Part shown: piece by piece, positions 4,094 through 39,356 of the stretch
Layout: the number at the start of each line of letters is the position of its first letter
Numbering within the stretch: position 1 is the first letter of the stretch
Assembly (NCBI GenBank): GCA_000375685.1
Contig: AQVQ01000001.1
Coordinates: 1 to 43,826 of the forward strand
Reading direction: 5' to 3'
Length of the DNA: 43,826 nt
DNA from: a crenarchaeote SCGC AAA261-N23
GTDB lineage: Archaea; Thermoproteota; Thermoprotei; Gearchaeales; Gearchaeaceae
Notes under the pieces: model-generated
The model's input: only the letters and a program-made list of their open reading frames with translations
Told to the model about the DNA's origin: nothing
Database searches by the model: none
Made by a program: the position numbers and the translations under genes

Positions 4094-4442
4094 TTACACA
4101 AATGAAAGCATCGCCCTTAAGGACGGGATGAATAGGCTTAAATAATTAAAATTTAAATTTTTCTTAGGAAATTCAGTGACGCTCCTCCTAAGCTCGATAG
4201 AGGGCTTTATGGGACTAGGAAGGAAAATTCAGTTGTACTTTTTAATGAAGGATTCTTTATAGAATCCAGAATTTGGGTTGGCAACCCTTTTAATGAGGGT
4301 TTATTTAAACCAGATAATATGGGGAAGCTGTGATTCTTAAAATGTCCAGCAAATGCGATATGTAGCTCCGAATTAATGCTGGAAACCTTTGAGCTACTCT
4401 AAAAGGAAAACCTTCATCCTTCTAGGGTAGCGAGGAGGTCAG
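4094..4442 (+). mobile_element. R1: copy of the ~350-bp non-autonomous IS200/IS605-like element (orientation defined as TTAC->TCAG)
   Basis: TTAC at 4094-4097, then ACAAATGAAAGCATCGCCCTTAAGGACGGGATGAA... through ...CTTCTAGGGTAGCGAGGAGGTCAG ending at 4442. It aligns end to end with the reverse complement of R2-R7. It lies in the divergent intergenic region between the 3427..4044 (-) and 4511..5098 (+) genes. Confidence 0.85.
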
Positions 4443-4510
4443 ATCTATTTGAAGCCTAATATTTTAGGCAAAATCAATAAACTTAAATATTTGCAAAAAA
4501 GAAAATCTTA

Positions 4511-5098
4511 ATGAAATCCGAAGAAGAAAATAAAGTTTCCTTTCCTCCTTATGTGAAAAGATTCTTAACAATAAGTCTATCTCTCTCCATTGTAGTAATA
4601 GCTGGCTTCTTAGTTGCTTACTTTTTGAATAATTTAATGGTTTTAGATTACGTTCATGTAATAACTGGTGGAACATGGACAGGCATAGATTTGTTCATGG
4701 GAACAATAATGAGTAGAATAATGCTATCGCTAGATGTAAACAGCAGGGTAGAAGTTGCAAAAAGGTTAACTCCTCTTCTTATGATTTTTATGCCCACTCT
4801 CTCAGCAGTCGTAATTACTGCAGGCTACTATCTTGCAAACAGATTAGGATGGTTTATAATAACTTCACCTTGGATAATTGCTGCAGGTGTAATCGTTATA
4901 ATACTTACTGTTCAAGGTTTCGGAATTCTCATGAGAAATGAAATAAGAGTGTTCCTTGAATTAAACAAACAGAAACCCAATGTTGAAAAGATAGTGAGAC
5001 TTACGAATATAAATTTAAAAACAGCGGGAAGTCAAGCTATTTTCCAACTTGCAATAATATTTGTTATGGCTCATCTTGCAATTTTTGGTCCTTTCTAA
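4511..5098 (+). CDS. Membrane protein, unknown function (about 5 TM)
   Basis: 195-aa hydrophobic ORF with no recognisable family motif. Confidence 0.5.
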   Translation: MKSEEENKVSFPPYVKRFLTISLSLSIVVIAGFLVAYFLNNLMVLDYVHVITGGTWTGIDLFMGTIMSRIMLSLDVNSRVEVAKRLTPLLMIFMPTLSAVVITAGYYLANRLGWFIITSPWIIAAGVIVIILTVQGFGILMRNEIRVFLELNKQKPNVEKIVRLTNINLKTAGSQAIFQLAIIFVMAHLAIFGPF

Positions 5099-5315
5099 TT
5101 TTTCAATTTATACATTATGTATCATGCTTAGATAGGATAAAAATTTCATATTGACAACTATATAAAATTTTCGTTATTTGAAAATTCAATAAATAATTGG
5201 ATTTATAACTAAATATTACCTTATTTAAAAAATCAGAATTTTTAGGAATAGAAAATGATTTATATTTATTTTGTAATAATTTCTTGCGAGAAAACAAGAT
5301 TCAAGTAAAGTATCG

Positions 5316-6242
5316 ATGCGCACATTTGTATCTACAATAGCTATTTTATTAATCATAATAATAATCGCATTTACATTATATTCAACTAAGCCAATCCAAA
5401 TAAATCAACCAACGCAAACTAAGATTATAATAAAATATGTGAAAATGAAAATAAGCGGAGCTTTTTATAATGGTAAGGTTATTAGCTTTGTTTATATAAA
5501 TACCACATGTCTTTCACAACAAGTAAACCTTACTCAACAAAATGTTGCATCCTATGAGAACTCAATAAAGTTCGCTAATTACTGTGGTACTTTTATTTTA
5601 AATGCTAGTGTGTTCCCAAAAGGCGCTCAACCTCTATTTGTTTTACTTCCGGTCTTTGCAGGGCCATCGATATTTGGCCTAAAAGAATTGAACGCTTCTC
5701 GAGAAGGATTCCCTGTTTTCAATAATCAAACGGTACTAACTCAATGCGGTGCAACAAATACGCAAGCTCAATGTCCTGATAATTTGACTTTAGTTTTCTC
5801 AGGGGGGATTTTATTATATGAAAAATATGTAAATCGTACTTTTGCTGGTTTACCGTTGGGCGTTCTTTACTTTCCTGCTCACGATATTTTAGTTAATTCA
5901 ATAACTCAAAATGAAACAACTGCTTGCTATTTAGTAATAGTTAAAGTTTATGATCCAAATATATTTCCCAATCCGTTAACAGGCAGATGTCAGCAGGTTG
6001 TGCCATCAAATCTAACCAACGCAACAGGCAATTGTCTAAATAATATTAATGCATTAATTAGAGCTATGAAGACAATCACTGCAGCTTCTGTTCAATATTA
6101 TTCTGCACTTCCTCCTAATTTAGGTACTGAAGTGGAGACTCAAGCAATAGTTCCAGGAATTTATAATACAAATCTTTTATTCTCATTATCAAATACCAAT
6201 ATAGTAATATTCGGAAATACAACAAATGAATATCCTATCTGA
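5316..6242 (+). CDS. Secreted or surface-anchored protein with an N-terminal TM/signal anchor and many N-glycosylation sequons
   Basis: 308 aa. The N-terminal hydrophobic stretch is TFVSTIAILLIIIIIAFTLY. About a dozen N-x-S/T sequons follow (NTT, NLT, NAS, NQT, NRT, NET, NAT and others), plus several Cys. This is the typical look of an archaeal extracellular glycoprotein. Confidence 0.55.
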   Translation: MRTFVSTIAILLIIIIIAFTLYSTKPIQINQPTQTKIIIKYVKMKISGAFYNGKVISFVYINTTCLSQQVNLTQQNVASYENSIKFANYCGTFILNASVFPKGAQPLFVLLPVFAGPSIFGLKELNASREGFPVFNNQTVLTQCGATNTQAQCPDNLTLVFSGGILLYEKYVNRTFAGLPLGVLYFPAHDILVNSITQNETTACYLVIVKVYDPNIFPNPLTGRCQQVVPSNLTNATGNCLNNINALIRAMKTITAASVQYYSALPPNLGTEVETQAIVPGIYNTNLLFSLSNTNIVIFGNTTNEYPI

Positions 6243-6533
6243 TTCAGCTAAACATAGTTATTTATAACTCACAAAATCTATTGAAAAATTAACTTCAAGT
6301 ATTTCTATGTAGATCTAAGAAAATCAAAATAAACATAATGATTGAAAAATTCAATTTTGAGATAATTGGAAATACATAATATTAATTATTTAATCTTCAA
6401 TAATGCCAAAGAAAGAACTTACTCAAAAGGCACATATAAGAAAAATCTTTGATACAAAGCTAACAAGCGGGTACTTGACATCAATTTCAATGATAATTGA
6501 ACATTCATTAATTTGAGGATAGATTTTTAATAC

Positions 6534-6974
6534 TTATTGATAAAGCAAAATAAGTCTTCCTTCAGAAGAAACTTTGAAAGTAATCTCCCTTACTGTTCTA
6601 CCTTTCCTTATACAAGGAGGATTAGCAAGCTTTACCATTCGAATTATCTCTATTATATTTGTTTTAAGATGGATTCTCCTTTTATCAGCAGCTTTTAAGA
6701 CAACTAAAGGAATTTCAGCTAAACGTGTACCTTTCCTTATTACAATTAATTCTTGTGATTGAATCAAAGAAACTATTTTTAAAGTTTCTTCAGCAGCTTT
6801 TATCTTACGCTTAGCTCTAAGCTCTATCATAGAAACATATGATCTGCTCAAATTTAATCTTTTAGCAATTTCAGCTTGTGTTAATCCTCGAGCTCTTAAC
6901 TTTAATATTTCAACTTGCAATTCATTAAGTAATCCATATTTTTTAGCATGAGACACAACAATAATTAGTGGCAA
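6534..6974 (-). CDS. tfx: Tfx-family DNA-binding transcriptional regulator
   Basis: LNELQVEILKLRARGLTQAEIAKRLNLSRSYVSMIELRAKRKIKAAEETL matches the sigma-70 region-4/LuxR-like HTH N-terminus of Methanothermobacter Tfx, followed by a Tfx-type C-domain. The true start may be a GTG a few codons inside the ORF. Confidence 0.7.
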   Translation of the reverse strand: MPLIIVVSHAKKYGLLNELQVEILKLRARGLTQAEIAKRLNLSRSYVSMIELRAKRKIKAAEETLKIVSLIQSQELIVIRKGTRLAEIPLVVLKAADKRRIHLKTNIIEIIRMVKLANPPCIRKGRTVREITFKVSSEGRLILLYQ

Positions 6975-7160
6975 AATTTTTAAATATTAACAAAATCTGT
7001 TGCAGTATATGATAAAAAAATGTTATGAGCTAGCTATTAAACTAAATAATTTTCTTATGGCTTATTTAGATAACTTTTCATTAAAGTCTTTGCTAAGCAC
7101 CAGTAATTTATTTGAAGAGTACATTCGTAAATATTTCTCATCTCATTCCCTTTGTAAAAA

Positions 7161-8474
7161 ATGAAGAAAACTTCTGCAAATTTTTACGTTAACGAAAAGC
7201 CAACTTTTGGTATAATACTATCGGCGACCATAGGGTCCGTAATTGAATGGTATGATTTGTTTGTATATGGATCGTTAATTGTAATTTTATCCCATGTGTT
7301 TTTTCCTATGACAAATTATTTCATTTCAGTTCTCTCTTCTATAGGTGCTTTTGTTGCAGGCGCTGCAGTTAGACCTTTAGGTGGTTTAATATTTGGAAGT
7401 ATTGGCGATAAATTAGGTAGAAAATACTCGTTCACTTTTACCATAATAATTATGGGATCATGTTCGTTTTTAACGGGCCTTTTACCAACTTATTCTTCAA
7501 TTGGAATAATTGCTCCGATATTGCTTGTAATTTTAAGGATTATACAAGGATTAGCCTTAGGAGGCGAATGGCCTGGTGCATCCATATTTTTAGCAGAAAG
7601 TTCTCCAAAAAACAAAATAGGTTATTGGACAAGCTACGTTCAAGCAAGCGCAACTACTGGGCTATTATTAGCAAGTCTAGCCTCATATTTATCCAACTTG
7701 TTTTTAGGATATGAAGACTTTTTATTATGGGGATGGCGCATTCCCTTTTTATTTTCCTCAATCCTTTTAATAGTTGGAATTGTTTCTAGATTAAGACTTA
7801 GCGAAACTCCTATATTTATAGAATTGATAAGGAGAAAAGAAATTTCAAACAATCCAATAAAAGAGAGTTTGTTGGATAAAAATAATTTAAAATTAATAAT
7901 GATTATTATTTTAATAGCTGGCGGCTCAAGCGTTGTTTGGCATACAGCTCAATACATATCCTCAATTTTCATGCAAAGTTATTTGCATTTGAATTTTTTA
8001 ATTGTGACTGAAATAATGATTTTGTCCTTTGCTTTATCAATTCCATTTTTTATATTCTTTGGCTGGTTATCAGATAAGATTGGTAGATTTATAATCTTAG
8101 CATTAGGTAATTTATTATTTTCGATTATTGTTATACCCGTATATTATTTAATTCCTATTTTTGTAATTCAGAAAAATTACATAGGAATATTTTTCTTAGT
8201 TTTTATTCAAATATTTTTGTCTAGTATGACTTATGGACCATTGGCTGCATTCATGATAGAAATCTTTAAATCAAAAATAAGATATACGTCAATTTCTATT
8301 CCTTATGGTATAGCTACAGGTGATATAGGCGATGGTTCATTACTAATAGTACCGATTCTAGGTTCAATTTTAGGTTCTTTCTATTTGGGATTAATATGGT
8401 CATTTTTGCTACCTCTAATCTCTTTCTTAATCTTGGTTCTATTTAGAAAAAGCTTCGAGATTAAAGAAAATTAA
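7161..8474 (+). CDS. MFS transporter, metabolite:H+ symporter (MHS/ProP/KgtP-like) family
   Basis: 437 aa, 12 TM, with GSVIEWYDLFVYGSL and GGLIFGSIGDKLGRK motifs characteristic of MHS-family MFS proteins. Confidence 0.8.
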   Translation: MKKTSANFYVNEKPTFGIILSATIGSVIEWYDLFVYGSLIVILSHVFFPMTNYFISVLSSIGAFVAGAAVRPLGGLIFGSIGDKLGRKYSFTFTIIIMGSCSFLTGLLPTYSSIGIIAPILLVILRIIQGLALGGEWPGASIFLAESSPKNKIGYWTSYVQASATTGLLLASLASYLSNLFLGYEDFLLWGWRIPFLFSSILLIVGIVSRLRLSETPIFIELIRRKEISNNPIKESLLDKNNLKLIMIIILIAGGSSVVWHTAQYISSIFMQSYLHLNFLIVTEIMILSFALSIPFFIFFGWLSDKIGRFIILALGNLLFSIIVIPVYYLIPIFVIQKNYIGIFFLVFIQIFLSSMTYGPLAAFMIEIFKSKIRYTSISIPYGIATGDIGDGSLLIVPILGSILGSFYLGLIWSFLLPLISFLILVLFRKSFEIKEN

Positions 8475-8511
8475 TTTAATTGTTTATAAGAACAAAAATA
8501 TTTAACAATCA

Positions 8512-8655
8512 GTAGTGCTGAATTCCTCATCATTCTAAAAAGACAAGCTTTTCAATAATTCTGACTTCCTCCCCGCCTTGAAAAGTTCGAGAGTTCCCTT
8601 TTCAAAGCGATTCATCGTTCCCCTCAATTGATTCGGAGCTACATCTCGCATGTAA
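8512..8655 (-). repeat. Two abutting fragments of the element: the TCAG-end ~95 nt (8561-8655) joined directly to a weak TTAC-end-like ~50 nt (8512-8560)
   Basis: 8561-8652 (CTGACTTCCTCCCCGCC...CAATTGATTCGGAGCTACATCTCGCATG) aligns with the first ~95 nt of R3/R7 read on the + strand. 8512-8560 (GTGCTGAATTCCT...CAAGCTTTTCAATAATT) resembles the other terminus at about 60% by eye. Confidence 0.55.
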
Positions 8656-8664
8656 AGTCTTGCT

Positions 8665-10520: not shown

Positions 10521-10521
10521 T

Positions 10522-13541: not shown

Positions 13542-13887
13542 TTGACCTACTCACTGCCCTAGAAAGTTGAGTGTTTTCTTCTAGAGAAGTTCACAGGTTT
13601 CCAGTATTGATTCGTAGCTACATATCTCATTTGCTGGCAGTTGGAAGAATCAGAGCTTTTCTCATACCATTTGGTCTTAAAAAGGAACCTTCATTAAAAG
13701 GGCAGCTATCCCTCAATCTGGATTCCATTAAGAATCCTTCATATAATAGTTGCCATGCTGATTGCTCCTCCTAAGCTTGATCAAGCTTAGGAGGAGAGTT
13801 GCTGAATTTCCTAAGAGAAATTTAAATTTTAATTATTTAATTCTATTCATCCCCGCCATAAAAGGTCGAGGCTTTGAATTGATGTAA
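13542..13887 (-). mobile_element. R2: copy of the ~350-bp element, about 96 bp upstream of the FdhA-like start codon
   Basis: On the + strand it reads TTGACCTACTCAC...CCAGTATTGATTCGTAGCTACATATCTCATTTGCTGG...GAGGCTTTGAATTGATGTAA. It is collinear with R3/R7, but the central hairpin loop is replaced by a perfect palindrome. Confidence 0.85.
13765..13796. repeat. Perfect 32-nt palindrome inside R2
   Basis: CTCCTCCTAAGCTTGA/TCAAGCTTAGGAGGAG; the two halves are exact reverse complements. It replaces the stem plus 22-nt loop seen at this position in the other copies. Confidence 0.95.
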
Positions 13888-21560: not shown

Positions 21561-21727
21561 ACTTTGAATTAAGAGATTTTTTACTACCTATTTAAGTAAA
21601 ACTTATTGAACTTTCCTTTCTTAATAATAACCTTAAGCGGACTTAGTTTATCTTGCGAAGTAAAAAATTGTGTAATTATGTACAGATTTAATCATGTTTG
21701 CTCTAATGAGACTTTACTCTAATTCTT

Positions 21728-22084
21728 CTGACCTCCTCCCCACCCTAGAAGGGTGAGGGTTCCCTTTTAGAGTAGCTCAAAGGTTTCCAGCATTGATTCG
21801 TAGCTACATGTCTCATTTGCTGGACAGTCGGGAGGATCAGAGCTTCCCCCATTTTATCTGGTCCTAAAAAGAAACCTTCATTAAAAGGGTTGCCAGCCCT
21901 GTATCTGGATTCTATTAAGAATCCTTCATTCAATAATTGCAACGCTGAATGCTCCTTCCTAAGTCCCATAATGCCCTCTATCGAGCTTAGGAAGAGCGTC
22001 ACTGAATTTCCTAAAAAAATTTAAATTTTAATTATTTAAGCCTTTTCATCCCCGCCATAAATGACGAGGCTTTCATTTATGTAA
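21728..22084 (-). mobile_element. R3: near-consensus copy of the ~350-bp element (357 bp)
   Basis: On the + strand it reads CTGACCTCCTCCCCACCCTAGAAGGGTGAGGG ... GAGGCTTTCATTTATGTAA. It is about 89% identical to R7 by hand alignment and lies between convergent genes. Confidence 0.9.
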
Positions 22085-24120: not shown

Positions 24121-24473
24121 CTGACATCCTCCCCACCCTAGAAGGGTTAGGGTTTCAACTTCTAGAGTAGTTCATAAGTTCCCAGCATTTATTCGGAGCT
24201 ACAACTCGCACTTGCTGGACATTGGAAGGATCAGAGCTTCCCCATGCAATCTGGTCCTAATAAGGAGCCTTCATATAAAGGGTTGCCATCTCAAAATCTG
24301 GATTCTAAAAAGAATCTTTCATTCAATAAAAATACTGAACGCTTCTTAATAAGTCCCATCATTCCCTCAATCAAGCTTAGGAGGAGCGTTACTGAATTTC
24401 CTAAAAATTCTTATAAAATAAATGTTTAAGTCTATTCATCCCGCCATAAATAGCGATGCTCTCATTTATGTAA
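24121..24473 (-). mobile_element. R4: copy of the ~350-bp element (353 bp)
   Basis: On the + strand it reads CTGACATCCTCCCCACCCTAGAAGGGTTAGGG ... GATGCTCTCATTTATGTAA. It is collinear with R3/R7 and more diverged (about 75-80% by eye). Confidence 0.88.
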
Positions 24474-25289: not shown

Positions 25290-25350
25290 TCAATTAAAAG
25301 TTAGATTCTTACCTTCTCCCCTAAATGATGAAGGCTTTCAATAGTTGTAA
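25290..25350 (-). repeat. ~60-nt fragment of the element retaining the TTAC-proximal end
   Basis: AATTAAAAGTTAGATTCTTACCTTCTCCCCTAAATGATGAAGGCTTTCAATAGTTGTAA aligns with AATTTTAATTATTTAAGCCTTTTCATCCCCGCCATAAATGACGAGGCTTTCATTTATGTAA. Confidence 0.55.
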
Positions 25351-25542
25351 GCAGTTCCATTTATTAAGATGAATGATGATCAGCTCTTGATATTAATGGA
25401 TTTGGTAAATATTGTGGAGATGATTATTTTCTAACCCTACCATGTTGAATGATAACTTAGCAACAGTAAATAAGTATATAAAAAAGTGTCAACCATAGAT
25501 AAAGCTAAGCCAACCGTTTCTAATTGAAAGTTAATACAATTA

Positions 25543-25926: not shown

Positions 25927-26249
25927 TCTGATTGCATTTCATGGTTCCCAACATTGATTCGGAGTACAGCTCTCATTTGTTTAGCATTCTTATAGTTAGA
26001 TTAGAACTCTCCACATCTTATCAAGTTTAAATAAACCTTCCATTTAAAGGGTCGCTAACCAAGATCTGTATTTTAAAAAGAACTCCTCATTTAAATTTAA
26101 TAATTGGAATGCTGAATGCTCCTCCTTAGTCTCCTAAAGTCTTCTATCGAGCTTAGGAAGATTTCACCGAATTTCATATAGATTTTTTAAATTCTCAGAT
26201 ATTTAATCTTTTCATCCCCGCTCTTAAGAGCAGGCTTTCATTTCAATAA
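25927..26249 (-). mobile_element. R5: degenerate copy of the element lacking the TCAG-end hairpin (~323 bp)
   Basis: On the + strand, CTGA at 25927 is joined to TTGCATTTCATGGTTCCCAACATTGATTCGGAGTACAGCTCTCATTTGTT ... GCTCTTAAGAGCAGGCTTTCATTTCAATAA. About 45 nt are missing after CTGA, and the terminus reads ATAA instead of GTAA. Confidence 0.7.
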
Positions 26250-26357: not shown

Positions 26358-28796
26358 TTACCGTAGTATTTCAATTTGACTAAAGTTATTATCATCCTTC
26401 CAAACTTTAATTACTGTATCAAAAATGGGATTATCTTGAATATCTTCAACATGCGATATTATGAAAATCTTATCATAATCGCTTTTTAGTTCAAGTATAG
26501 CTTTAAGAACAGCTTCTCTAAACTCCTTGCTTAATGGTCCGAAACCTTCATCAATTATCAACAATCTAGGAACTATACCTAGTCTTGAAGATGAAAGAAT
26601 CTTGGCTATGCCTAATCTGAAAGCTAATCCTATTATAGTTTTTTCTCCTCCTGAATAAGTAGCTAGTTCTCTTACATACCCATTCTGAGCTACATTTATT
26701 TCAACTTTATCCTGCTCTGTTTTAATTTCAACAGAAATATCTGGCTTAACCTTAGGTAGAAAATAAGAATTGATGTAATCATTCAGTTTTTCAATGTAAT
26801 CTTTCAAAAGCTTCAAAGGAAAGCCTCTATCGTTGAATATATCCTCGCAGATTATTTCATATGCACGGAGATTAATTTTTTTGTTATTCAAATCTCTTTC
26901 TTTTTCTTCAACTTCTTTCTTACTTTTTTCAATATACTTAAGCTGTTCATCTGCGTACTTTATTTTCTGATTCAATCCACCAATTTCTTCATTCATGTAT
27001 CTGATCCTTTCCTGTAAGTTTTTTCTAATTCTGTTCTTTTCTTGAATTTCAGAATCAATTTTGTTTAGTTGTAGTTTGAGATCTTTTTCAGCCTGAACTT
27101 TCTTGTTTAATTCATCAATCTTTTTTTCCAGTTCTTTTAGCTTCTTTTCCCTCTCAGGCAAAATCTTTTTATATTCATTTATATTTGCTAGTTCATTGCT
27201 TATTCTTATTATTTCATTATCACATTTCCTAATTTCTTGCTCAATATTTCTAGCTTCAAGCTTATACCTTTGCAATATATCTTCGCTATTTAGTTTATGA
27301 ATTTCTTCCTTCAATTTATTCAGGTCAATTTGCTTATTTTTAATTTCCTCCCTTAATTCTTCTTCATTACTTGCAAGGCTTTCTAACAATTCTATTGAGC
27401 TTGCTTTTCTCTCATATTCTTTCTTTCGCACATTTAGTTCTTCTTCTTTTTTCTCGATTTCTTCAAGCAACTTCTCTTCAGCTATTCTTTTACTTCTAAT
27501 AGCCTCAATTTTTCTTTCGTAATCTTGAATTAGCACAAGTCTATGTTCTTTCGTCAGATCCCTTTTACAAACTGGGCAAACAGTAGAAGTATCACTTCTT
27601 AGAATTTCTAGAATTCTATTGATTTCTTCCTCTTGCGACCTCATAATTGCAATTTCTTCATTTTTGCTTCCTATCTCATCTTGAATTTCTTTTATCTCCT
27701 TTTCATATTCAGCAAGAATATCTTTAGCCTTCTTAGCCTCTTCAAGATCGATTTTATATTTCTGCTTTTTATTTAGTTCATTCTGAAGATTGTGAAGTTC
27801 TCTTTCAAGAAATTCAACTTCCTTTCTCCTTAAATTGATTTCATTGAGTATTGCTTTAACTTTATTTAAATCTTCTCTAATTAATTTATATTTTTCTAAA
27901 TCTTTTCTATACTCGCTTTCATTTTGTAATCTTTTGGTATAATCATTTATTTCTTTAATTAAATTGAATTTTTCTTTAGTTAAATCTTCTATTTCTTTTT
28001 TTATAATTTCTAACTGTTTGACTTCGTTCTCAATTATAGATTTTGTTCTAGTTAAACTTTCTATTTCATTTTCAAGTTCTCCTAGGTTTTTATTAAAGTT
28101 ATCCAATTCCTCTTTTATTACTTGAATATTCTGATTTGCTTCTTCAAGTTCTTTCCTTATCTCTCCTTCTTTACTAATTTCCTTTTTCAACTCTTCTATA
28201 TTTTCTTTAATATTTTTAATTTCATCACTAAGCTCATTTCTTAATTCCTTTGCTTTTTCCAAGTGCTTTGAAAAATCAAGGTTGAAAGCTTTAAGCAATA
28301 TTTCTCTTCTTTCCTTAGGACTTGCTTCTAGAAATCGCATCACATCTCCTTGTCTAACCATTATTGAATTTAAGAAGGTAGTATAATCGAAATTGATCAT
28401 AGAATTTATTATTTTATCAACCTCTTTAACAGATACAGCTTTCTTAATTAAATTGCCATCTTTTTCTTCATAAAGAATCGCGTTTGCAGGTGCGTCTTTG
28501 TAAACTATTCTTGAAATCTTATATCTCTTTCCGGATACTGAAAATTCCAGCTCGCACTTTGCTTCACTAAACATAGGGTTTATGACGAGCTTTGTTGTTC
28601 CTTGCCTATCCATATTGTAAGCGTTTCCAAACAAGCAAAATGTTATTGAATCAACTATTAGAGTTGTTTTACCACTTCCAGTAGCACCATAAATGTTAAC
28701 AAGATGACCTAATTTATCGAGATCAAATGTTAACTTTCTGTAGCTTGCAAAATTTTCAAGTGTAATACTATGAATAGTAATTTCACTGAGCTTCAT
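26358..28796 (-). CDS. rad50: DNA double-strand break repair ATPase Rad50
   Basis: Walker A GATGSGKTT, a long heptad-rich coiled coil, zinc hook CPVCKR, signature YSGGEK and Walker B LLIIDEGF. I place the start at MKLSEITIHS (ATG 28796) rather than the upstream ORF extension, giving a 14-nt overlap with the mre11 stop. Confidence 0.92.
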   Translation of the reverse strand: MKLSEITIHSITLENFASYRKLTFDLDKLGHLVNIYGATGSGKTTLIVDSITFCLFGNAYNMDRQGTTKLVINPMFSEAKCELEFSVSGKRYKISRIVYKDAPANAILYEEKDGNLIKKAVSVKEVDKIINSMINFDYTTFLNSIMVRQGDVMRFLEASPKERREILLKAFNLDFSKHLEKAKELRNELSDEIKNIKENIEELKKEISKEGEIRKELEEANQNIQVIKEELDNFNKNLGELENEIESLTRTKSIIENEVKQLEIIKKEIEDLTKEKFNLIKEINDYTKRLQNESEYRKDLEKYKLIREDLNKVKAILNEINLRRKEVEFLERELHNLQNELNKKQKYKIDLEEAKKAKDILAEYEKEIKEIQDEIGSKNEEIAIMRSQEEEINRILEILRSDTSTVCPVCKRDLTKEHRLVLIQDYERKIEAIRSKRIAEEKLLEEIEKKEEELNVRKKEYERKASSIELLESLASNEEELREEIKNKQIDLNKLKEEIHKLNSEDILQRYKLEARNIEQEIRKCDNEIIRISNELANINEYKKILPEREKKLKELEKKIDELNKKVQAEKDLKLQLNKIDSEIQEKNRIRKNLQERIRYMNEEIGGLNQKIKYADEQLKYIEKSKKEVEEKERDLNNKKINLRAYEIICEDIFNDRGFPLKLLKDYIEKLNDYINSYFLPKVKPDISVEIKTEQDKVEINVAQNGYVRELATYSGGEKTIIGLAFRLGIAKILSSSRLGIVPRLLIIDEGFGPLSKEFREAVLKAILELKSDYDKIFIISHVEDIQDNPIFDTVIKVWKDDNNFSQIEILR

Positions 28797-29982
28797 AGGA
28801 GGACATCTCTTCAATAATTTTAAAGGAATATTCCTTAACTTTTTCCAGAACTTCCTTTGGCTCTTTTTTATATTTTGTATATATGTATTGCTCAAGCATT
28901 TCTCTTATGTTTGATGAAACTTTAAATTCAATTTCTTTCTCTTTAAACTCTTCTTTTATTTCTTCAATCTTGAATGCAAGAACCTTCCTTTTTTCGTATA
29001 AATAATCTTCAATTGACTTTCTTGAAATACTTTTGATAATTCCATAACCCTTTATTCTTATTCTTAATAATGAACCTTCTTCAATTTTTTGTTCATTAAG
29101 AAATTTTATTAAAGATTGTGTTAAGTCAAGCGAAGACACCAGCGAATCTTTTTCAATATAAATTGTCTTCATGGGCCTGAGTTTTAACTTTATTTGATTT
29201 ACGTTTATTTTGCTACCCAAATTTATCTCAAAGAAAGATTTTTCTTCATTTTCTTCGCCAAAATCTATTCTTTCAATTGAACCGGCATAGTAAATTTTAT
29301 CTCCAAGCTTTTGGGGCATATGTAAATGCCCTAGGCAAACAAGATCGATGTTTTCCTTTTCAAAAACATTCTTGGGAATTGGATAATCTTTCAATGAAGC
29401 TACTCTTTGCTCCGAACCTAATTTTCCTCCCTCAACGTATAGATGACCAACTATTACGTTATAATCAGCTTCGCTCTTTTGAATAAGATCATTTATTTTT
29501 CTCTCAATAACTTGAACGAACTCATCGTATCTTAAAGTAGATTGAAAATGAGGATAAGGTATACCAATGAAATTAACTTTTTCATTTGAATCTTTAGATT
29601 TTAGGCTAATCATTGAAGCTTCATCAAAAAGATAGAAATTATTCAAATTCACATTTTCAAAGCTTTTAATGTAACTAAGCATTTCCCTAGTTTTGAAAGT
29701 ATCATGATTTCCAAGAACGACAATTACATTTATATTATTCTTTAATAAATCACCAATAATTCTTGAAAATTCATTGTAAGCCTGTACAGCAGGTCTTGGA
29801 TGATGAAATACATCTCCTGCAATTATAAAAAAGTCGACATTTGAACTTATTGCGTATTCTTTTATAAAATTAAAATTGCTAACGAAATCATTGAATCTTT
29901 GCTGAATTAAATATGAACTTTCGTAGAGCTCATATGAACCTATTCCAAGATGTAGATCAGCAGTATGTATGATTTTTACCAT
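28783..29982 (-). CDS. mre11: DNA double-strand break repair nuclease Mre11
   Basis: Phosphoesterase motifs occur in order: ADLHLG, GDVFH, GNHD, GHLYV and GHLH. The start is taken at MVKIIHTADLHLG (ATG 29982); the ORF also allows 29997. Confidence 0.9.
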   Translation of the reverse strand: MVKIIHTADLHLGIGSYELYESSYLIQQRFNDFVSNFNFIKEYAISSNVDFFIIAGDVFHHPRPAVQAYNEFSRIIGDLLKNNINVIVVLGNHDTFKTREMLSYIKSFENVNLNNFYLFDEASMISLKSKDSNEKVNFIGIPYPHFQSTLRYDEFVQVIERKINDLIQKSEADYNVIVGHLYVEGGKLGSEQRVASLKDYPIPKNVFEKENIDLVCLGHLHMPQKLGDKIYYAGSIERIDFGEENEEKSFFEINLGSKINVNQIKLKLRPMKTIYIEKDSLVSSLDLTQSLIKFLNEQKIEEGSLLRIRIKGYGIIKSISRKSIEDYLYEKRKVLAFKIEEIKEEFKEKEIEFKVSSNIREMLEQYIYTKYKKEPKEVLEKVKEYSFKIIEEMSSYEAQ

Positions 29983-30622
29983 AAAATAATCACCCATGAA
30001 AACATTATGTTTTTACTATAAAGGTTCTTCATTGAAGAATCTAATCCTTTTTCGCCAAGTCCTTTATTAATCAGTTTAACAATTTTTTTAAAGGTATTCA
30101 TGCTTTGGATACTATTTTGAATATGCATCTGATTGTAGTGATAAAATAATTGCTATAAAAGTTTTGAGTATCCACAATAGATTTAGCGCCAGGGCGAATC
30201 CATTTTGACAATCCAATTCAAAAAAGGTCAATGGTTTTGTTTTTAAAATACATTGTAAATTTATTTTAGACAAACTGGAGTTTGAATTTAATAGTTTAAC
30301 TGTTCTTATTTCTGTATCCTTAAATATTTCTAGTATGTTTTCGCCCTCCTGAAATCTCAGGAATCCTGGGAATTGCTTCGGTTCGGGTACTATATCCCAA
30401 CCGCTCATGGCTGAGCTAAAAATGGGTTTTGGGGTTTATAAATCTGGGGTTAAGCATGGTTTTTCCGCATGCAAACGGGCTGGGGTCTATTAGTCTATGT
30501 CCTTTTTTCAAAAAGCAAAGCTAATATTAAACTTGAAATTACAAAAATTAGTTAATTGGATTTAGAAAACTACTTTATGTGATTCTTCTGAAATTTTAAT
30601 TTTTTGTAAATTAACTAAGAGT

Positions 30623-31845: not shown

Positions 31846-32321
31846 CTGACTTCTTCTCGCTATGAATTACGAGAGTGCTCTCAATTGATTTGGAGCTACA
31901 TATCGCATATGAGGGGCAGTCGAGAGACTTAGAGAACCTCTCCCATTTAAGTTTTCTATTGCTATTACATCTCTATCATTTTCATAACCGCTGTATACTG
32001 ATAATGCATTTCTATAACAATCTTCAGCTATTTTTGAAGGAAGATTGAAACTCTTGAGTTTATTATATAGTTCTTTATAAACAATGCTTATTACATTGTT
32101 TTTGTTTGGATTATTCTTTTTTCTTTTAACCAATAAAGAACATATCTTAAAGCTTCTAAATAGTCTTTGGAAAAGACTAGGAGGGATTCTGATATTGCGA
32201 TATTCATTGAAACAGTAGCTCTTATCGCATTATTCCTCCTAGTCATTGAGAAACTTTAGAAAATAATTACTTAAGTCTATTCATCCAAGCCCTTAAAAGG
32301 CGAGGCTTTCAATTGATGTAA
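31846..32321 (-). mobile_element. R6: divergent, longer (476 bp) member of the element family carrying a TnpB-like coding remnant
   Basis: The termini (CTGACTTCTTCTCGC... and ...GGCGAGGCTTTCAATTGATGTAA) and the core (CAATTGATTTGGAGCTACATATCGCAT) match the family. The interior ~270 bp is unique and encodes, on the - strand, ...[36 protein letters not shown]... Confidence 0.8.
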
Positions 32322-33861: not shown

Positions 33862-34215
33862 CTGACCTCCTCCTCACCCTAGAAGGTTGAGGGTTCCCTT
33901 TTAGAGAAGTTCATTGGTTTCCAGCATTGATTCGTGGCTACATCTCGCATTTGCTGGACAGTCGGGAGGATCAGAGCTTCCCCCATTTTATCTGGTTAAA
34001 ATAAACCTTCATATAAAGGGCTGCCAGCCCAAAATCTGGATTCTAATAAGAATCCTTCATTCAATAATTGCAATACTGAATGCTCCTCCTTAAGTCCCAT
34101 AAAGCCCTCTATCGAGCTTAGGAGGAGCGTCATTGAGTTTCCTAAGAGAAATTTAAATTTTAATTATTTTAGCCTTTTCATCCCGCCCTAGAAGACGAGG
34201 CTTTCATTTATGTAA
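33862..34215 (-). mobile_element. R7: near-consensus copy of the ~350-bp element (354 bp)
   Basis: On the + strand it reads CTGACCTCCTCCTCACCCTAGAAGGTTGAGGG ... GACGAGGCTTTCATTTATGTAA. It is about 89% identical to R3. Confidence 0.9.
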
Positions 34216-34692: not shown

Positions 34693-35535
34693 ATGAGTTT
34701 AAAGAAATATCTCCCAATTTTTACTACAGCTATAGTATGGGGCTTAGCATTCCCTTTATCGAAAATCGTGCTATTTTTTATGTCACCAATGATTCTTTCT
34801 TTAATTAGATTTTTAATAGGTGGAGCTGCATTATTACTAGTTTCAAGAAAGATTTTGCTAAGTTTCAAAGTTTTTATCAACTCACTTCTAAACATAGGAA
34901 TAGTTATTACCTTGCTTAACATAGGCTTAGCTATAACATCTGATCCGGCCTTTGCATCTGTTATACTGTATTCGCAACCTCTATTCGTTTTATTGATTTC
35001 ATATCTTTATTTAAAGCAGAAAATTTCAATTCTACAAAAGATAGGAACAGCATTGGCTCTCTTAGGATTAATTATCGGTGTAGGAAGTTACGAAATTGAT
35101 TTAGGAGTGATTTTAATACTGATAGCTGGATTTACCTGGGCCGTTGGAACAATATATTACAGGAGAAACTTTTACAATCAAAATCTTCTAGCGCTTAATT
35201 CAGCTATGGCCTTCTTTTCGGCATTTTTTGTTTTACCTTTGTTACCCATTGATTATTATTTTATTCCTTCCATTTTTGCAATAGCTTTAGCAATTCTAAT
35301 AGGGTTGCTTGTACAAGCTACAGGGTGGGCCCTTTGGTTTAAATCTATAGATATAATAGGAACAATAAATACAAGTCTATTTTCTTTACTTGTTCCAGTT
35401 TTTGCTTATATATTTACATTCTTAATATTCTTCCAAATTCCAAATAGTTTAAGAATACTTGGCTCAGCTTTGGTTATCCTTGGTATCTTTTTAAGCGAAT
35501 ACGAATCCTATAAGTTTAGTAAAACTCTTTCATAA
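34693..35535 (+). CDS. EamA/DMT-family transporter
   Basis: 280 aa, 10 TM, with two EamA-like repeats (AIVWGLAFPLSK..., FTWAVGTIYYRR...). Confidence 0.75.
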   Translation: MSLKKYLPIFTTAIVWGLAFPLSKIVLFFMSPMILSLIRFLIGGAALLLVSRKILLSFKVFINSLLNIGIVITLLNIGLAITSDPAFASVILYSQPLFVLLISYLYLKQKISILQKIGTALALLGLIIGVGSYEIDLGVILILIAGFTWAVGTIYYRRNFYNQNLLALNSAMAFFSAFFVLPLLPIDYYFIPSIFAIALAILIGLLVQATGWALWFKSIDIIGTINTSLFSLLVPVFAYIFTFLIFFQIPNSLRILGSALVILGIFLSEYESYKFSKTLS

Positions 35536-36382
35536 TCTCTTTAATTTGTTCTTTGTTTGGGAAATCATGATAGACCAATGGCTTTCCTTTATAAATATCT
35601 TCAAAGTATTCCTCATAAGAAGGCTTTTCAGCTTTATAAAACAGCCCTATAGGTATTTTATCTCCAAATTCATAGGCTCTCTTGATCGCTAATTCAAAGT
35701 TTGTTGGATCGTGGCCAATGCTTTCAAGCTTATATATCCTCTTTCTAAACCATTCATATGTGTTGAGCTTGTTGAAAGTGACACAAGGACTAAATACATC
35801 TACTAAAGCGAATCCTTTATGTAAAATACCATTCTTTATAAGCTGTGCTAAGTGAATAGGATCTCCAGAGAAACCTCGAGAAACATATGTTGCCCCTCCA
35901 GCAATTGCCAATGCTATAGGATTAATAGGATCATCAATTACTCCGAAAGGAGTAGATTTAGTAACATGCTTCTTCATGCTAGTAGGTGATGCTTGACCTG
36001 TGGTTAAACCGTAAACTTGGTTATTCATGACTATTACTGTGATATCAGGATTTCTTCTCATAGCATGAATGAAATGCCCCATGCCTATTCCGTAGCAATC
36101 CCCATCTCCTACCGTTACAATTACAGTCAATTCAGGATTTGCAAGTTTTGCTCCTGTTGCTACAGGAATTGCTCTTCCATGTATCCCATGGAAACCATAG
36201 GTGGAAATAAAGCCTGGAAGATTTGAGGAACAACCAATTCCTGAAACAATCAAAACATCCTTAGGATCCAAGTTTAGCTCGTATAGGGCTCTTTGAATTG
36301 CGTTCAATACTGCAAAATCTCCGCAACCTGGACACCAATCAGGTTGAACTTCTCCCTTATAAATTTTGAGTACGGATTCCAT
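35516..36382 (-). CDS. 2-oxoacid:ferredoxin oxidoreductase beta subunit (TPP-binding)
   Basis: 288 aa with WCPGCGDF, GIGCSS and GDGDCYGIG (TPP motif). There is a 1-nt overlap with the alpha subunit gene. Confidence 0.88.
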   Translation of the reverse strand: MESVLKIYKGEVQPDWCPGCGDFAVLNAIQRALYELNLDPKDVLIVSGIGCSSNLPGFISTYGFHGIHGRAIPVATGAKLANPELTVIVTVGDGDCYGIGMGHFIHAMRRNPDITVIVMNNQVYGLTTGQASPTSMKKHVTKSTPFGVIDDPINPIALAIAGGATYVSRGFSGDPIHLAQLIKNGILHKGFALVDVFSPCVTFNKLNTYEWFRKRIYKLESIGHDPTNFELAIKRAYEFGDKIPIGLFYKAEKPSYEEYFEDIYKGKPLVYHDFPNKEQIKEIMKEFY

Positions 36383-38154
36383 TATCTAATCACCTCATAA
36401 CTTTTTAAATTAAGAACTTCTTTAGCCTTGTTTACAATTTCTAAAGGCATAATGGGCATTCCGTCATACTTCAAGAGCTTATTTTTGATAAAAATACCTG
36501 TATGCTGCGCTATTAAACCTCCTACTTGTCCGCTGTAGTTGTTTTCAACTAACAAAATTTCTTTAGCTTTTTCAAGAATTTCTTTTATTTCCTTTCCTTG
36601 GAAGGGATGTAAGTACTTGATTTCAAGTGAATTTGCAATTATGCCTTCATTTTCAAGTATTTGTAGAGCTTCTCTTACAGCTCCTCTTGTTGATCCCCAA
36701 CTTACGATTGTTATATCTGCATTTTGAGGACCGTATAATGTAGGAGGTTCAAGCTCCTTTAAAATGTATTGCTCTTTCCTCATTCTCTTTTCCATCATAG
36801 CTTTCCTTATTTTTAGCATATAAGGTAATCCTGCTAATACATCGCTTACTAAATGACCTTTTTCATCGTGTTCGTCGCTTGCAGCAACAAAGTTGTAACC
36901 CTTCATTCCTGGCAAGGCTCTTGGAGATACACCATTTTCTGTGATAAGAAATCTTTTATAATCCTTTATTTCTCCTTCCTTTACTATCCAGCCCCTATCT
37001 ATTTTTATGTTTTCTATATCAAATTCATTTTCCAAAGTTGTTGCTGATTCGTTCATATAAAGATCTGAAACGATTATGACAGGAATTTGATATTTTTCTG
37101 CAAGATTGAATGCCTCTATAGTTGAATAGAATAGTTCTTCTATATCTCTAGGAGCAATAACGACTTTTGGATAATCACTCTGGCCAGCACCTAAGACTTG
37201 CCTTACATCTCCTTGTTCAGTGTTTGTTGGCAAACCTGTAGAAGGTCCGCCTCTTTGTCCTTCAACTATAACTAAAGGTGTTTCCGTCATTCCAGCTAAA
37301 CCCACAGCTTCCGACATCAAAGCAAAACCGCCACCTGATGTTGCAACCATACTTCTAACACCTGCAAACGAAGCACCGATTGCCATGTTTATTACCGCAA
37401 TTTCATCTTCAGGTTGTAAAACTATCATTCCTGCTTTCTTTGTATGCTCAGCAAACCAATGTAGAATTGGAGAAGAAGGAGTCATTGGATAAGCTGCATA
37501 AAACTTACATCCAGCAACATAACCGCCAAAAGCTATCGCACTTGTGCCGTTTAAAAACATTCTTCTTCTAGGACCCTTCTCTATTTTTATTCTTACATTT
37601 TTGTAAACTTCGCTAGCATATTCATAACCTTTTCTTGCAGCAGCAATATTCTGCTCAACTATTTCCCTTCCTTTATCTCCAAATTCATACTCTAATACTT
37701 CTTTTAATATATTGAAATCTAAATCAAGGATGTAAGCAATCGCACCATAAGCAACAACGTTTTGCATTGCAGCTATTCTTGAATAAAGTTGAGCAATCTC
37801 TGCCAAAGGAATATTCAAATCTATGAACTTTTTACCTACTTCTGAAGGATCAAACTTTACCTTATTTGCATCATAAATTATTATACCGCCCTCTCTAAGT
37901 TGAGCTGAATCATAAACGATACCATCTTTATTTGTAGTGACCATTATATCGTAGTAATCTCCAAAGGAAGTTAGTTTCTTATTATGCGCTCTTACTTGAT
38001 ACCAAACATGTCCTCCTCTTATCACAGATTGATAGTTTCTATAAGCATATACATGCAAACCAGATCTTGCAAAAGTTCTTACCATTATACTTCCAATTGA
38101 TTCAATACCATCTCCTGCTGCACCACAGAATCTAACAGCTATAGGATTTGTCAT
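36382..38154 (-). CDS. 2-oxoacid:ferredoxin oxidoreductase alpha subunit (fused gamma-alpha type)
   Basis: 590 aa. The N-terminal gamma-like domain reads GAAGDGIESIG. The alpha domain follows (YPMTPSSPILHW, ATSGGGFALMSEAVGLAGMTETPLVIV, RGGPSTGLPT). Confidence 0.88.
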   Translation of the reverse strand: MTNPIAVRFCGAAGDGIESIGSIMVRTFARSGLHVYAYRNYQSVIRGGHVWYQVRAHNKKLTSFGDYYDIMVTTNKDGIVYDSAQLREGGIIIYDANKVKFDPSEVGKKFIDLNIPLAEIAQLYSRIAAMQNVVAYGAIAYILDLDFNILKEVLEYEFGDKGREIVEQNIAAARKGYEYASEVYKNVRIKIEKGPRRRMFLNGTSAIAFGGYVAGCKFYAAYPMTPSSPILHWFAEHTKKAGMIVLQPEDEIAVINMAIGASFAGVRSMVATSGGGFALMSEAVGLAGMTETPLVIVEGQRGGPSTGLPTNTEQGDVRQVLGAGQSDYPKVVIAPRDIEELFYSTIEAFNLAEKYQIPVIIVSDLYMNESATTLENEFDIENIKIDRGWIVKEGEIKDYKRFLITENGVSPRALPGMKGYNFVAASDEHDEKGHLVSDVLAGLPYMLKIRKAMMEKRMRKEQYILKELEPPTLYGPQNADITIVSWGSTRGAVREALQILENEGIIANSLEIKYLHPFQGKEIKEILEKAKEILLVENNYSGQVGGLIAQHTGIFIKNKLLKYDGMPIMPLEIVNKAKEVLNLKSYEVIR

Positions 38155-38296
38155 TTATCAAAATCTTTTAATATACTATCGTGTATTTATTTCCTTTCTT
38201 TTAGATTTTAAAATAAGAAAATCTGACCAAAAATAAATACGGTATATATTCTAGTTCATAATCTATTTATAGATAACTAAAAATATTGTATTAATA

Positions 38297-39307
38297 ATGA
38301 AAGAAATTAGAAATGTACAGGTAACAGGAAGAGGAACGTTTATAGTTTCCTTACCCAAAGAATGGGTAAAAAGTAACAATTTGAAACCGCAGGACAAAAT
38401 TGTAGTAATAGAGCAAGAGGACTCATCCTTAGCAATATATGTCTGGAAAGAAATGAAGGAAAAGGAGGATAAAGTTATTAGTCTAAATTTAGAAGAGTAC
38501 AAAGATTTCGATTCAATGATTAGAGAATGTATTGCATGCTACTTAGTAGGTTACAATAAGATTAATTTAAAATTCGGTAAAAGATCCATTGAATACAAAG
38601 ATAAGTTAAAAGAAGTTTTAAGGAATAGACTTGTAGGAATTGAATTTCTTGAAGAGAACATAGATAGTCTATTAATTCAAGTTTTCTCCATGTTTGAAAT
38701 GTATTTGGATAAAGCGTTTAACAGATTGTATAGCATCGTATACTTGATGTTGGAAAATTTAAGTTCTGCAATTAAGGAGAAGGTTAATCTTTTTCCAAAA
38801 ATTTCAAAGCTTGATGATGAAGTCGATAGATTCTACAACTTAATCACTAGGCAAATAAATATAGCTCTAAGCAACATTTACCTAATGCCTGACCTTGGAA
38901 TATCAAGAAGATCAGAGCTTATAGAGTACAGACTTAACGGAAAGACTTTAGAAAGAATAGCTGACCACATCCAAAACATTTCAGACGAGTTAAATACTAC
39001 ATATAATAAATTGGATGAAAATATTTTAAAAATCCTATATGAATTAACTGAAACTTCAAAAGTAATTTTAAAAAAAGCAATAGAAGCTTTCTTTAATAAA
39101 AATAAATTCATAGCAAACGAAACAATAAATTATTGCTATGATAACTTAAATAGGATTATAGATTTCGAAAAGTCGATTTTTGGTTACGAATTGGAACAAA
39201 CATTAATGGTCTCATTGAGGGTAATTTTGGATAGTTTCAAAAGAATAATAGAATATTGTGTGGATATATGCGAATTTGCTATAGATAAATCAGTTTGGAA
39301 TGCCTAA
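38297..39307 (+). CDS. PhoU-domain phosphate-uptake regulator with an N-terminal AbrB/SpoVT-type DNA-binding domain
   Basis: 336 aa. The N-terminus VQVTGRGTFIVSLPKEWVKSNNLKPQDKIVV is a SpoVT/AbrB swapped-hairpin. Two helical PhoU-like repeats follow (DDEVDRFYNLI..., ERIADHIQNI...). Confidence 0.7.
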   Translation: MKEIRNVQVTGRGTFIVSLPKEWVKSNNLKPQDKIVVIEQEDSSLAIYVWKEMKEKEDKVISLNLEEYKDFDSMIRECIACYLVGYNKINLKFGKRSIEYKDKLKEVLRNRLVGIEFLEENIDSLLIQVFSMFEMYLDKAFNRLYSIVYLMLENLSSAIKEKVNLFPKISKLDDEVDRFYNLITRQINIALSNIYLMPDLGISRRSELIEYRLNGKTLERIADHIQNISDELNTTYNKLDENILKILYELTETSKVILKKAIEAFFNKNKFIANETINYCYDNLNRIIDFEKSIFGYELEQTLMVSLRVILDSFKRIIEYCVDICEFAIDKSVWNA

Positions 39308-39317
39308 ATTATGTATA

Positions 39318-39356
39318 CTGACGTTCTTATTGCTCACGAGGCTTTCATTTGTGTAA
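39318..39356 (-). repeat. 39-nt mini-fragment with both element termini (CTGAC ... GAGGCTTTCATTTGTGTAA)
   Basis: CTGACGTTCTTATTGCTCACGAGGCTTTCATTTGTGTAA. The last 22 nt match the TTAC-end consensus well. The CTGAC could be coincidence. Confidence 0.45.

Follow-up and report, generated by a model that had tools for sequence, protein, structure and literature searches.

Protein-less IS200/IS605-type repeats in a crenarchaeal chromosome, probably moved in trans and probably specifying a TnpB guide RNA

Multi-copy, protein-less repeats without inverted ends were described in 2011 in Acidianus hospitalis W1 as MITE-like (miniature inverted-repeat transposable element-like), orfB-derived repeats (You et al. 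2011; PMC3119797). One of their ends holds a short open reading frame (ORF) equivalent to the downstream portion of OrfB (TnpB), the orfB elements of that genome insert after TTAC, and such repeats were also reported in other Sulfolobus and crenarchaeal genomes; there was no evidence of mobility then, and the description preceded the discovery of the guide RNAs (PMC3119797). Palindrome-associated transposable elements (PATEs) of the IS200/IS605 family are known from haloarchaea and from Geobacillus stearothermophilus, and PATE RNAs are transcribed in Halobacterium (PMC3119063, PMC4615843, 10.1101/2023.03.14.532601); a 2023 study of TnpB homing noted that PATEs often encode ωRNAs, which must serve TnpB in trans (10.1101/2023.03.14.532601). 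SisTnpB1 of Sulfolobus islandicus is a characterised crenarchaeal TnpB with its ωRNA and the motif TTTAA (10.1101/2023.03.06.531077). RNAs of the Rfam family HgcC are expressed in other archaea, where they have no known function (PMC4615843, PMC5732400); in 2015 the family was connected to a PATE-derived RNA and to the right-end tetraloop of the sense transcripts of IS1341-type tnpB genes (PMC4615843), transcripts that are what is now called ωRNA. Here we analyse a stretch of 43,826 nucleotides from the crenarchaeote SCGC AAA261-N23 (contig AQVQ01000001.1, positions 1 to 43,826; "the window" below means this whole stretch), which holds a dense family of ~350-bp intergenic repeats. We think it likely that these are non-autonomous, PATE/MITE-like IS200/IS605 elements that are mobilised in trans by TnpA and whose transcript is a TnpB ωRNA. 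Our confidence is higher for the IS200/IS605 identity than for this explanation as a whole, and lower for a guide-RNA function in trans.

Repeat finding, multiple alignment and a profile search, together with direct reading of the sequence for two more remnants, recovered from the window five complete copies of ~350 bp (R1, R2, R3, R4, and R7), one decayed copy (R5), one longer relative (R6), and three fragments. The original prediction, made from the sequence alone, had counted seven long copies and at least four fragments; the family does lie at the coordinates that it gave, except that it began each copy with a TTAC that belongs to the flank. The complete copies matched the profile at E values of 1e-104 to 1e-125, and the profile additionally caught R5 (only at 25941-26243, profile positions 7-306), the two ends of R6 and the right-end fragment at 8561-8652, whereas the 35-nt remnant at 39318-39352 and the left-end fragment at ~25300-25347 were added by direct reading. 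The latter is tentative because its profile match is weak (E 3.7). The 20-nt left-end motif occurs five times in the window against 0.03 expected by chance, and the right-end motif six times against 0.17. Nine of the 10 copies and fragments lie on the minus strand, as listed here with the landmarks of the reference copy R3.

4098..4442, plus strand: R1, complete short element; TTAC flank at 4094-4097; end GAGGAGGTCAG; profile positions 1-357, E 5e-111
8561..8652, minus strand: solo right-end fragment of a second subfamily; encodes HMRDVAPNQLRGT; end GGAGGAAGTCAG
13542..13883, minus strand: R2, complete short element; TTAC at 13884-13887; variant tail GAGTAGGTCAA, which ends TCAA
21728..22080, minus strand: R3, reference short element; TTAC at 22081-22084
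22070-22073 and 22050-22069, minus strand: R3 left end, guide tetranucleotide AAAG and left hairpin
22020-22040 and 22002, minus strand: R3 TATA-like AT stretch, and GTG of the 85-codon frame
21997-21787, minus strand: R3 helices H1 to H6
21738-21762 and 21728-21737, minus strand: R3 right end, GAAC with the right hairpin, and 10-nt tail AGGAGGTCAG
24121..24469, minus strand: R4, complete short element; TTAC at 24470-24473; variant tail GGAGGATGTCAG
25300..25347, minus strand: degenerate left-end fragment, tentative; TTAC at 25348-25351, then AACTATTGAAAGCCTTCATCATTTAGGGGAGAAGG
25927..26245, minus strand: R5, decayed copy; TTAT instead of TTAC at 26246-26249; right-end hairpin gone; variant tail
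31846..32317, minus strand: R6, internally deleted tnpB element; TTAC at 32318-32321, common left end; right end GAGAAGAAGTCAG
33862..34211, minus strand: R7, complete short element; TTAC at 34212-34215
39318..39352, minus strand: 35-nt remnant with both termini; TTAC at 39353-39356, ACAAATGAAAGCCTCG, 14 nt, GTCAG

R3 and R7 are 90% identical (~89% had been estimated), and the remaining full copies are 72-86% identical among themselves, a somewhat higher range than the 70-80% first given. R6 is only ~50% identical to all other long copies and has nothing but its ends in common with them, and the predicted end-to-end collinearity accordingly holds for the five complete copies and not for R6. 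R2 carries a 14-nt deletion within helix H1. The locus of R1 is also present, with an identical 3' flank, in a public metagenome-assembled genome (MAG), Thermoprotei archaeon CPBay_Spr30G08_23 (locus L005).

We scanned one genome per species with the right-end pattern and obtained five loci, all in Thermoproteota MAGs; the same pattern was found on 112 metagenome contigs, mostly with JGI (Ga…) identifiers and a few with ENA-style accessions. A scan of viral contigs returned 0 loci, and there is thus no sign of carriage on known viruses. In the loci so gathered (L numbers below), the profile identified 85 full-length copies at 44 distinct insertion sites, the five of the window included; all pairs in the resulting 44-copy set are less than 97% identical, with a median pairwise identity of 80%. 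TTAC precedes 42 of the 44 sites, of which 25 read TTTAC, and the two others read ATAC and have one flank in common. TCAG terminates 41 of the 44 copies. The rule of a TTAC start and a TCAG end proposed for the window therefore stands in the larger set, with corrections in detail: TTAT, thought to precede two copies, precedes only R5 among the long ones, and the tails of R2, R4, R5, and R6 deviate from TCAG or vary. As predicted, target-site duplications and terminal inverted repeats are lacking, since a flanking direct repeat of at least 3 nt was seen at 0 of 43 sites, and the first 20 nt of the 44 copies match the reverse complement of the last 20 at a mean of 5.5 positions (maximum 7), which is the chance level. 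A DDE-type MITE was rejected on the same two counts, there being neither inverted ends nor target duplications.

Two pairs of occupied and empty sites bear on the boundaries. In the first, L066 is filled and L080 is empty, reading TTTTAC joined to ATTGTTAAAC; in the second, L085 is filled and L118 is without the element and otherwise unchanged, within one base. These pairs place both boundaries to within one base. Together with the flanks of the 44 sites, they show that the element begins directly after TTAC and ends at TCAG, and that its presence differs between related strains; both the tabulation of flanks and the comparison with empty sites, proposed as checks beforehand, thus came out in favour of the prediction.

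Several loci show irregular surroundings. An imperfect direct repeat of ~16 nt (TTTTAAGCATATAATTTA / TGTTAAACATATAATTAA) flanks the filled site of L066 (L066:4900-5290 compared with L080:2425-2575 and L087:3165-3304), and its "empty" relatives differ, one retaining TTTTAC and another being without 13 nt that cover TTTTAC; given that 0 of 43 sites have one, this repeat is not a regular target duplication. A single 5' flank (TTATTCCATTCTTAACATCC followed by TTAC) is joined to three different 3' flanks in L118:3114-3470, L009:5292-5652, and L079:3001-3351, and a single 3' flank (AACATCAAGAATATCG) stands behind copies with two different 5' flanks in L107:103-459 and L117:5662-6018. Either copies have recombined with one another, or the metagenome assemblies are chimeric at the repeat. 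In L021:9078-9460, L044:5655-6035, and L105, a second right-end-like sequence (AAAGGGAACCCTCGCCATTTAAGGG) directly follows a short copy, which suggests insertion beside or into an older element. Finally, L001, L003, L015, L031, and ~20 other loci from other Thermoproteota have only the last 40-60 nt (profile ~300-357), namely the right hairpin and GAGGAGGTCAG; at L015 and L031, among others, an unrelated host gene stops 50-75 nt before this piece. Such loci may represent solo right ends, or the hairpin may have been put to use independently.

As anticipated, a hairpin lies near each end, although R5 is without the right one. The two are similar, C-rich/G-rich and imperfect, and lie on one strand. 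The left hairpin (CCTCGCCA-TTTA-TGGCGGGG; 8 bp, imperfect) stands 11 nt after TTAC, and the right hairpin (CCTCACCC-TTCTA-GGGTGGGG) is followed by the 10-nt tail; the 4 nt immediately 5' of them are AAAG and GAAC, respectively. In the 44-copy alignment, six of the eight pairs of the left hairpin show two-sided changes, and the right hairpin is 81.5% paired. In IS608, the left cleavage site and guide are TTAC/AAAG, the right ones are TCAA/GAAT, and right cleavage takes place 10 nt 3' of the hairpin foot (PMC3201880, PMC5934647). Our elements resemble this Helicobacter pylori transposon in the left pair TTAC/AAAG, in a right cleavage position 10 nt past the hairpin foot, in top-strand specificity, and in the lack of inverted repeats and target duplications. 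They differ from it in the right pair, here TCAG/GAAC, where the last base is changed in site and guide alike, in the distance from TTAC to the left hairpin (11 nt rather than 19 nt), in their archaeal host, and in that the short element contains no tnpA or tnpB. The guide tetranucleotides would, by this comparison, pair with the cleavage sites as they do in IS608.

Elements that have these ends in common with the short copies carry tnpB and, in one case, a truncated Y1 transposase gene as well. At L079:1388-2639, TTAC is followed by a left end that hardly differs from the one in the short copies, by an intact 387-amino acid (aa) TnpB (PF07282, and weakly PF01385) whose stop codon lies within the right-hairpin loop, and by a tail with GTCAG as its last bases. 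Only 360 bp from this element sits a short copy. Its size of ~1.25 kb would fit ISC1316, a candidate for the parent of the R6 and L079 elements. L006 has a TnpB element resembling that of L079, placed after TTAC and interrupting a gene, and L108 encodes an intact TnpB of 407 aa whose frame continues across a right end with exactly the pattern seen in the short copies. In L048, a Y1_Tnp gene (PF01797, 98 bits, without profile positions 1-32) stands beside a 451-aa TnpB, the right end agrees with the short copies at 35 of its 37 terminal nt, and the left hairpin is similar. PF07282 was found in the TnpB of all four loci and PF01385 above its cut-off only in L048, and in all four the tnpB 3' end runs into or through the right end. 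No DDE enzyme was found in the relatives sharing these ends. The gene-bearing relatives with common ends thus place the family in IS200/IS605, without involvement of a DDE enzyme, which is what the original prediction had held from the ends. It also holds that the repeats are non-autonomous, as 85 copies have both ends and no transposase or nuclease gene between them.

The TnpB frames of this clade pass through the right end, with the stop either in the hairpin loop (L079:2600-2625) or only in host DNA past TCAG (L108; L048:7380-7437; L004:4600-4650), and in the latter three the last residues of the protein are therefore set by the insertion site. In L004 (4536-4628), which belongs to a Desulfurococcus MAG, the right end of a decayed tnpB element lies directly next to a tRNA gene (56 bits), at 8 nt from the 3' end of that gene.

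Within the window, R6 derives from a tnpB gene. Its start codon and the codons for the TnpB N-terminus are joined directly to those for the RuvC-III motif and the C-terminus, the frame leaping from about residue 97, and its peptide is 70-97% identical to TnpB fragments from Sulfolobales and hot-spring metagenomes (protein search, and tblastn against full TnpB), the closest of which bear the names Acidianus, Sulfuracidifex, and Saccharolobus. Because Pfam and NCBIfam return no significant family for the R6 peptide, homology search was needed to recognise it as TnpB. The metagenome contig L007 holds the same locus.

The short element itself consists of three parts. Positions 1-90 are the left end, which reaches the former tnpB start codon (ATG or GTG, position 83) and is the same in kind as that of tnpB-only elements of the same community, with AAAG, the hairpin, and the AT-rich tnpB promoter region. 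Positions ~95-228 are a structured middle module of ~135 nt with helices H1 to H4. Positions 229-357 (~130 nt) align collinearly with the 3' end of tnpB plus the right end in L108, L004, L079, and L006, and they contain H5, H6, the right hairpin, and the 10-nt tail with its terminal TCAG; this 3' third translates to the TnpB C-terminus, frameshifted in some copies (blastx, 43 residues against the L108 TnpB, E down to 6e-8). For the middle module, a DNA profile run against all loci found no match inside any tnpB, and the best blastx E value against four TnpB proteins was an unconvincing 0.03; an exhaustive protein search with the R3 frame matched no TnpB. A second short subfamily (L066, L022, L116, and L086) has helix H1 in common with the first and takes its 3' part from an L079-type tnpB.

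Rfam yielded no match in the window at gathering scores, housekeeping RNAs included, and a housekeeping origin of the repeats, one of the outcomes envisaged earlier, did not materialise. At relaxed scores, the last ~135 nt of the element and ~20 nt of flank align to the whole HgcC model (RF00062) with 20-27 bits in the window (R3, 26.8 bits at 21715-21850; R7, 22.3; R4, 20.1). This alignment takes in the first stem, the right-end hairpin, the GAGGAGGUCAG motif, and an unconserved tail where the guide would be. The tnpB 3' end of L048 scores 36.8 bits with HgcC (E 3.6e-5), and in this locus only there is a match to sot0042 (RF02656; 30.9 bits, E 1.5e-4). These sequences differ from HgcC and sot0042 proper in scoring 20-37 bits where the gathering threshold is 50, and 31 where it is 88, and are non-members by the Rfam criterion.

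A global RNAalifold prediction for the 44-copy alignment contained implausible long-range pairs and was discarded in favour of a hand-built structure with pair counts. In the ten helices of this structure, 87.7% of cells are paired in the 44 copies, compared with 40-59% in slid controls, and two-sided changes occur in 26 pairs where shuffling gives 13.6; the observed number was equalled by 0 of 500 shuffles, in a control that ignores relatedness. Helix H6 covaries across short and tnpB-bearing elements (CCAGCA/TGCTGG, CCCGCA/TGCGGG, and CCCTCA/TGAGGG), and the RNA fold of R3 has a z-score of -2.76. Because G·T exceeds A·C (288:133 overall, 50:15 in the left hairpin, and 145:40 in the 3' part), the strand that runs from TTAC to TCAG is favoured as the folded one. 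As a separate observation, the 3' arm of H1 (AAGGAGGAGC; H1 = 21951-21997) resembles the right-end tail (GGGGAGGAGG; 21728-21741) at the same positions in all copies, so that the 5' arm CUCCUCC could pair with either; in the second subfamily, the three segments (H1 arms and tail) change in concert (GCTTCTCCC / GGGAGAAGC / GGGAGGAAG). This likeness could reflect an alternative pairing or a pseudoknot beside the guide.

The conserved interior bears on whether the repeats are simply inert relics, that is, internally deleted IS200/IS605 copies, mobile through TnpA now or once, whose RNA has no role and whose interior is conserved by shared descent and single-strand DNA folding rather than by guide-RNA function. 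We regard this as unlikely. TnpA of IS608 needs only subterminal hairpins and the guide and cleavage tetranucleotides (PMC3201880), yet the ~260-nt interior is collinear in 44 diverged copies; compensatory changes occur in four middle helices, the H1 module is common to two short subfamilies with different tnpB-derived 3' parts, and H5, H6, and the core of the right hairpin match the scaffold of tnpB-bearing elements, with covariation. Relics would, on the other hand, fit a window in which, as had been predicted, tnpA and intact tnpB are both absent, copies that are old (a median identity of only 80% family-wide, with R5 and three fragments decayed), a middle module in which the ratio of nonsynonymous to synonymous change (pN/pS) is ~1 and in which G·T is about as frequent as A·C (93:78), leaving its folded strand undecided, and a shuffle control for covariation that is uncorrected for relatedness. 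The missing partner genes, the age of the copies, and the undecided strand also count against TnpB-guided, TnpA-mobilised elements as such, and further findings weigh on the same side. The middle module is without a tnpB counterpart, which leaves a simple origin by internal deletion unproven; in the ~0.8 Mb of retrieved loci, none of the tnpB-bearing elements seen has a 3' scaffold that closely matches the short copies, and the exact right-end pattern occurs on tnpB only in L108 (intact) and L004 (decayed) as against 85 short copies. The sole Y1 gene found, that of L048, is without the N-terminal 32 profile positions, and its flank reads TTGAC rather than TTAC. All Rfam scores are under gathering, and transcription, read-through into the flank, and use of TnpB by the short elements are steps that we infer.

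The HgcC likeness raises the question of whether the repeats are instead host-domesticated, HgcC-like structured small RNAs that are no longer mobile and regulate the genes near their insertion sites. Every copy in the window is intergenic, as first reported, and many adjoin gene starts or ends, which such a role would fit, as would the expression of HgcC, of unknown function, in other archaea (PMC4615843, PMC5732400). Presence and absence between related strains at exact TTAC and TCAG boundaries argues the other way, as do the mixed orientation of the copies relative to neighbouring genes and Rfam scores far under gathering. Further, the would-be guides, that is, the flanks, are unrelated among copies and have no second TTAC-adjacent target in the window, where only low-complexity chance matches were seen. 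We consider domestication highly improbable.

About half of the 44 copies contain an open frame of 83-88 codons that begins at the former tnpB start codon and closes within the loop of the right hairpin; at both points it agrees with the intact TnpB of L079. To call the repeats non-coding was therefore too simple, even though the product of this mini-ORF matches no Pfam family. In the window the frame is intact only in R3 (85 codons, 21745-22002); that of R7 begins with ATG and has one premature stop. Of the 16 copies that differ from copy L118 by multiple-of-three indels only, 15 are open, compared with 6.0 expected under random substitution in a neutral simulation against L118, and 45 of 89 indel events are multiples of three; because the copies are related, however, this excess of open frames is not a clean probability. 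These figures, the shared TnpB start and stop, and the report of such a short ORF in the A. hospitalis elements (PMC3119797) are what might be expected if the repeats were a mobile small-protein gene, in which an 83-88-residue "ΔTnpB" peptide is conserved or the RNA functions only if this frame is translated. Differences are nevertheless spread evenly over the three codon positions (0.19, 0.17, and 0.19), and the N-terminal 45 residues have a pN/pS of 1.0 and the tail one of 0.6. When 1.84 billion representative proteins were searched, 18 matched, of which 14 are short peptides (42-85 aa) that are apparently products of the same elements and four are longer proteins (215-2489 aa) matched over short stretches only. 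A mobile small-protein gene thus appears very unlikely, and the mini-ORF reads as inherited from tnpB, perhaps kept open for translation, and not as a conserved protein.

Target choice, boundaries, end geometry, kinship with tnpB and tnpA-tnpB elements, and the conserved fold, as they emerge from sequence comparison, underlie the following scheme for elements mobilised in trans. A Y1 TnpA made elsewhere would bind the two similar top-strand hairpins and cleave on the 3' side of both the flanking TTAC and TCAG; the single-stranded circle would be re-inserted 3' of another TTAC, leaving no duplication. The AT-rich stretch of the left end, ~28 nt upstream of the L079 ATG and ~37 nt upstream of the R3 GTG, would be an inherited promoter driving an RNA of ~280 nt across the right end into the flank. 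This RNA would be a TnpB ωRNA with neighbouring host sequence as its guide, and the TnpB of a tnpB-bearing relative may load it, as bacterial IS605 work suggests (10.1101/2023.03.14.532601). The loaded TnpB would then cut the emptied site, TTAC plus flank, and recombination with a sister copy would restore the element (10.1101/2023.03.14.532601). If this is true, the elements persist and multiply without encoding any protein.

The genes around the copies are ordinary chromosomal ones (molybdenum-cofactor synthesis, molybdopterin oxidoreductase, Rad50/Mre11, 2-oxoacid:ferredoxin oxidoreductase, and transporters), the G+C content of the window is ~31%, and a tRNA/tmRNA scan of it detected nothing. 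This G+C content and the HgcC match had initially pointed to Methanococcales, an origin rejected once all related loci turned out to be from Thermoproteota; the host is an uncultured, hot-spring member of the Thermoprotei, probably near the Sulfolobales. The gene pair for Rad50 (with zinc hook) and an Mre11-like phosphoesterase, at 26358-29997, directly adjoins R5; because the two frames as listed overlap by ~110 nt, the upstream start codon was probably miscalled by the mechanical ORF list.

The class described from A. hospitalis in 2011 is the closest precedent, and the short elements here consequently belong to an already known kind. Likened by description only, the two agree in being crenarchaeal, in lacking inverted ends, and in a frame that relates to the end of TnpB, the C-terminal 43 residues here aligning to TnpB C-termini. 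They differ in density, with 10 copies and fragments in 44 kb here and 10 full copies in 2.1 Mb there, and in that the elements here have mapped boundaries and empty sites, a described end geometry and RNA structure, and traced links to tnpA and tnpB. With PATEs, our elements have in common both ends with subterminal hairpins, multiple copies, no protein gene, and mobilisation in trans, which for our elements is presumed. Published PATEs, however, are mostly fused minimal ends, whereas here ~260 nt of interior are kept, often with an open frame of ~85 codons, and a 135-nt structured module is present that is absent from the tnpB-bearing relatives found. SisTnpB1, again compared by description only, is likewise a thermophilic crenarchaeal IS200/IS605 TnpB with a right-end-derived RNA and a guide from the flank; it differs in its motif, TTTAA rather than TTAC, and in being encoded together with its RNA. 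The original prediction had overlooked R6 as a tnpB deletion derivative, the tnpB-derived 3' third with its weak HgcC/sot0042 matches, the mini-ORF, and the A. hospitalis precedent (PMC3119797). What is added here is the exact ends, the empty sites, the IS608-like guide and cleavage logic, the HgcC/sot0042 link, a fold supported by covariation, the middle module, and the high density in the core chromosome.

A bolder proposal, which we hold to be possible but doubtful, is that the short elements are more than leftovers of tnpB elements and form a self-standing, long-lived, "guide-RNA-only" transposon lineage. Three observations are compatible with it: for each tnpB-bearing relative that shares their right-end pattern, the sampled DNA has ~40 short copies; the H1-H4 module occurs in both subfamilies, whose tnpB-derived 3' parts differ, and in none of the tnpB genes found; and the former tnpB frame stays open more often than expected by chance. 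If so, selection would act on the RNA, and perhaps on its translation, and the elements would hijack both TnpA and TnpB as hyperparasites of the OMEGA system.

Overall, the findings leave knowledge of how IS200/IS605 elements work unchanged. They connect the "MITE-like" repeats of Acidianus described in 2011, the orphan Rfam family HgcC, and the OMEGA guide RNAs. For annotation, they mean that one element per ~5 kb of core chromosome fills intergenic space that would otherwise be called hypothetical small ORFs. Dozens of diverged, structurally conserved, protein-less, putative ωRNA genes beside a few tnpB and tnpA elements with the same ends are a natural test case for the idea, so far expressed in passing, that TnpB uses the guide RNAs of PATEs in trans and thereby secures their retention.

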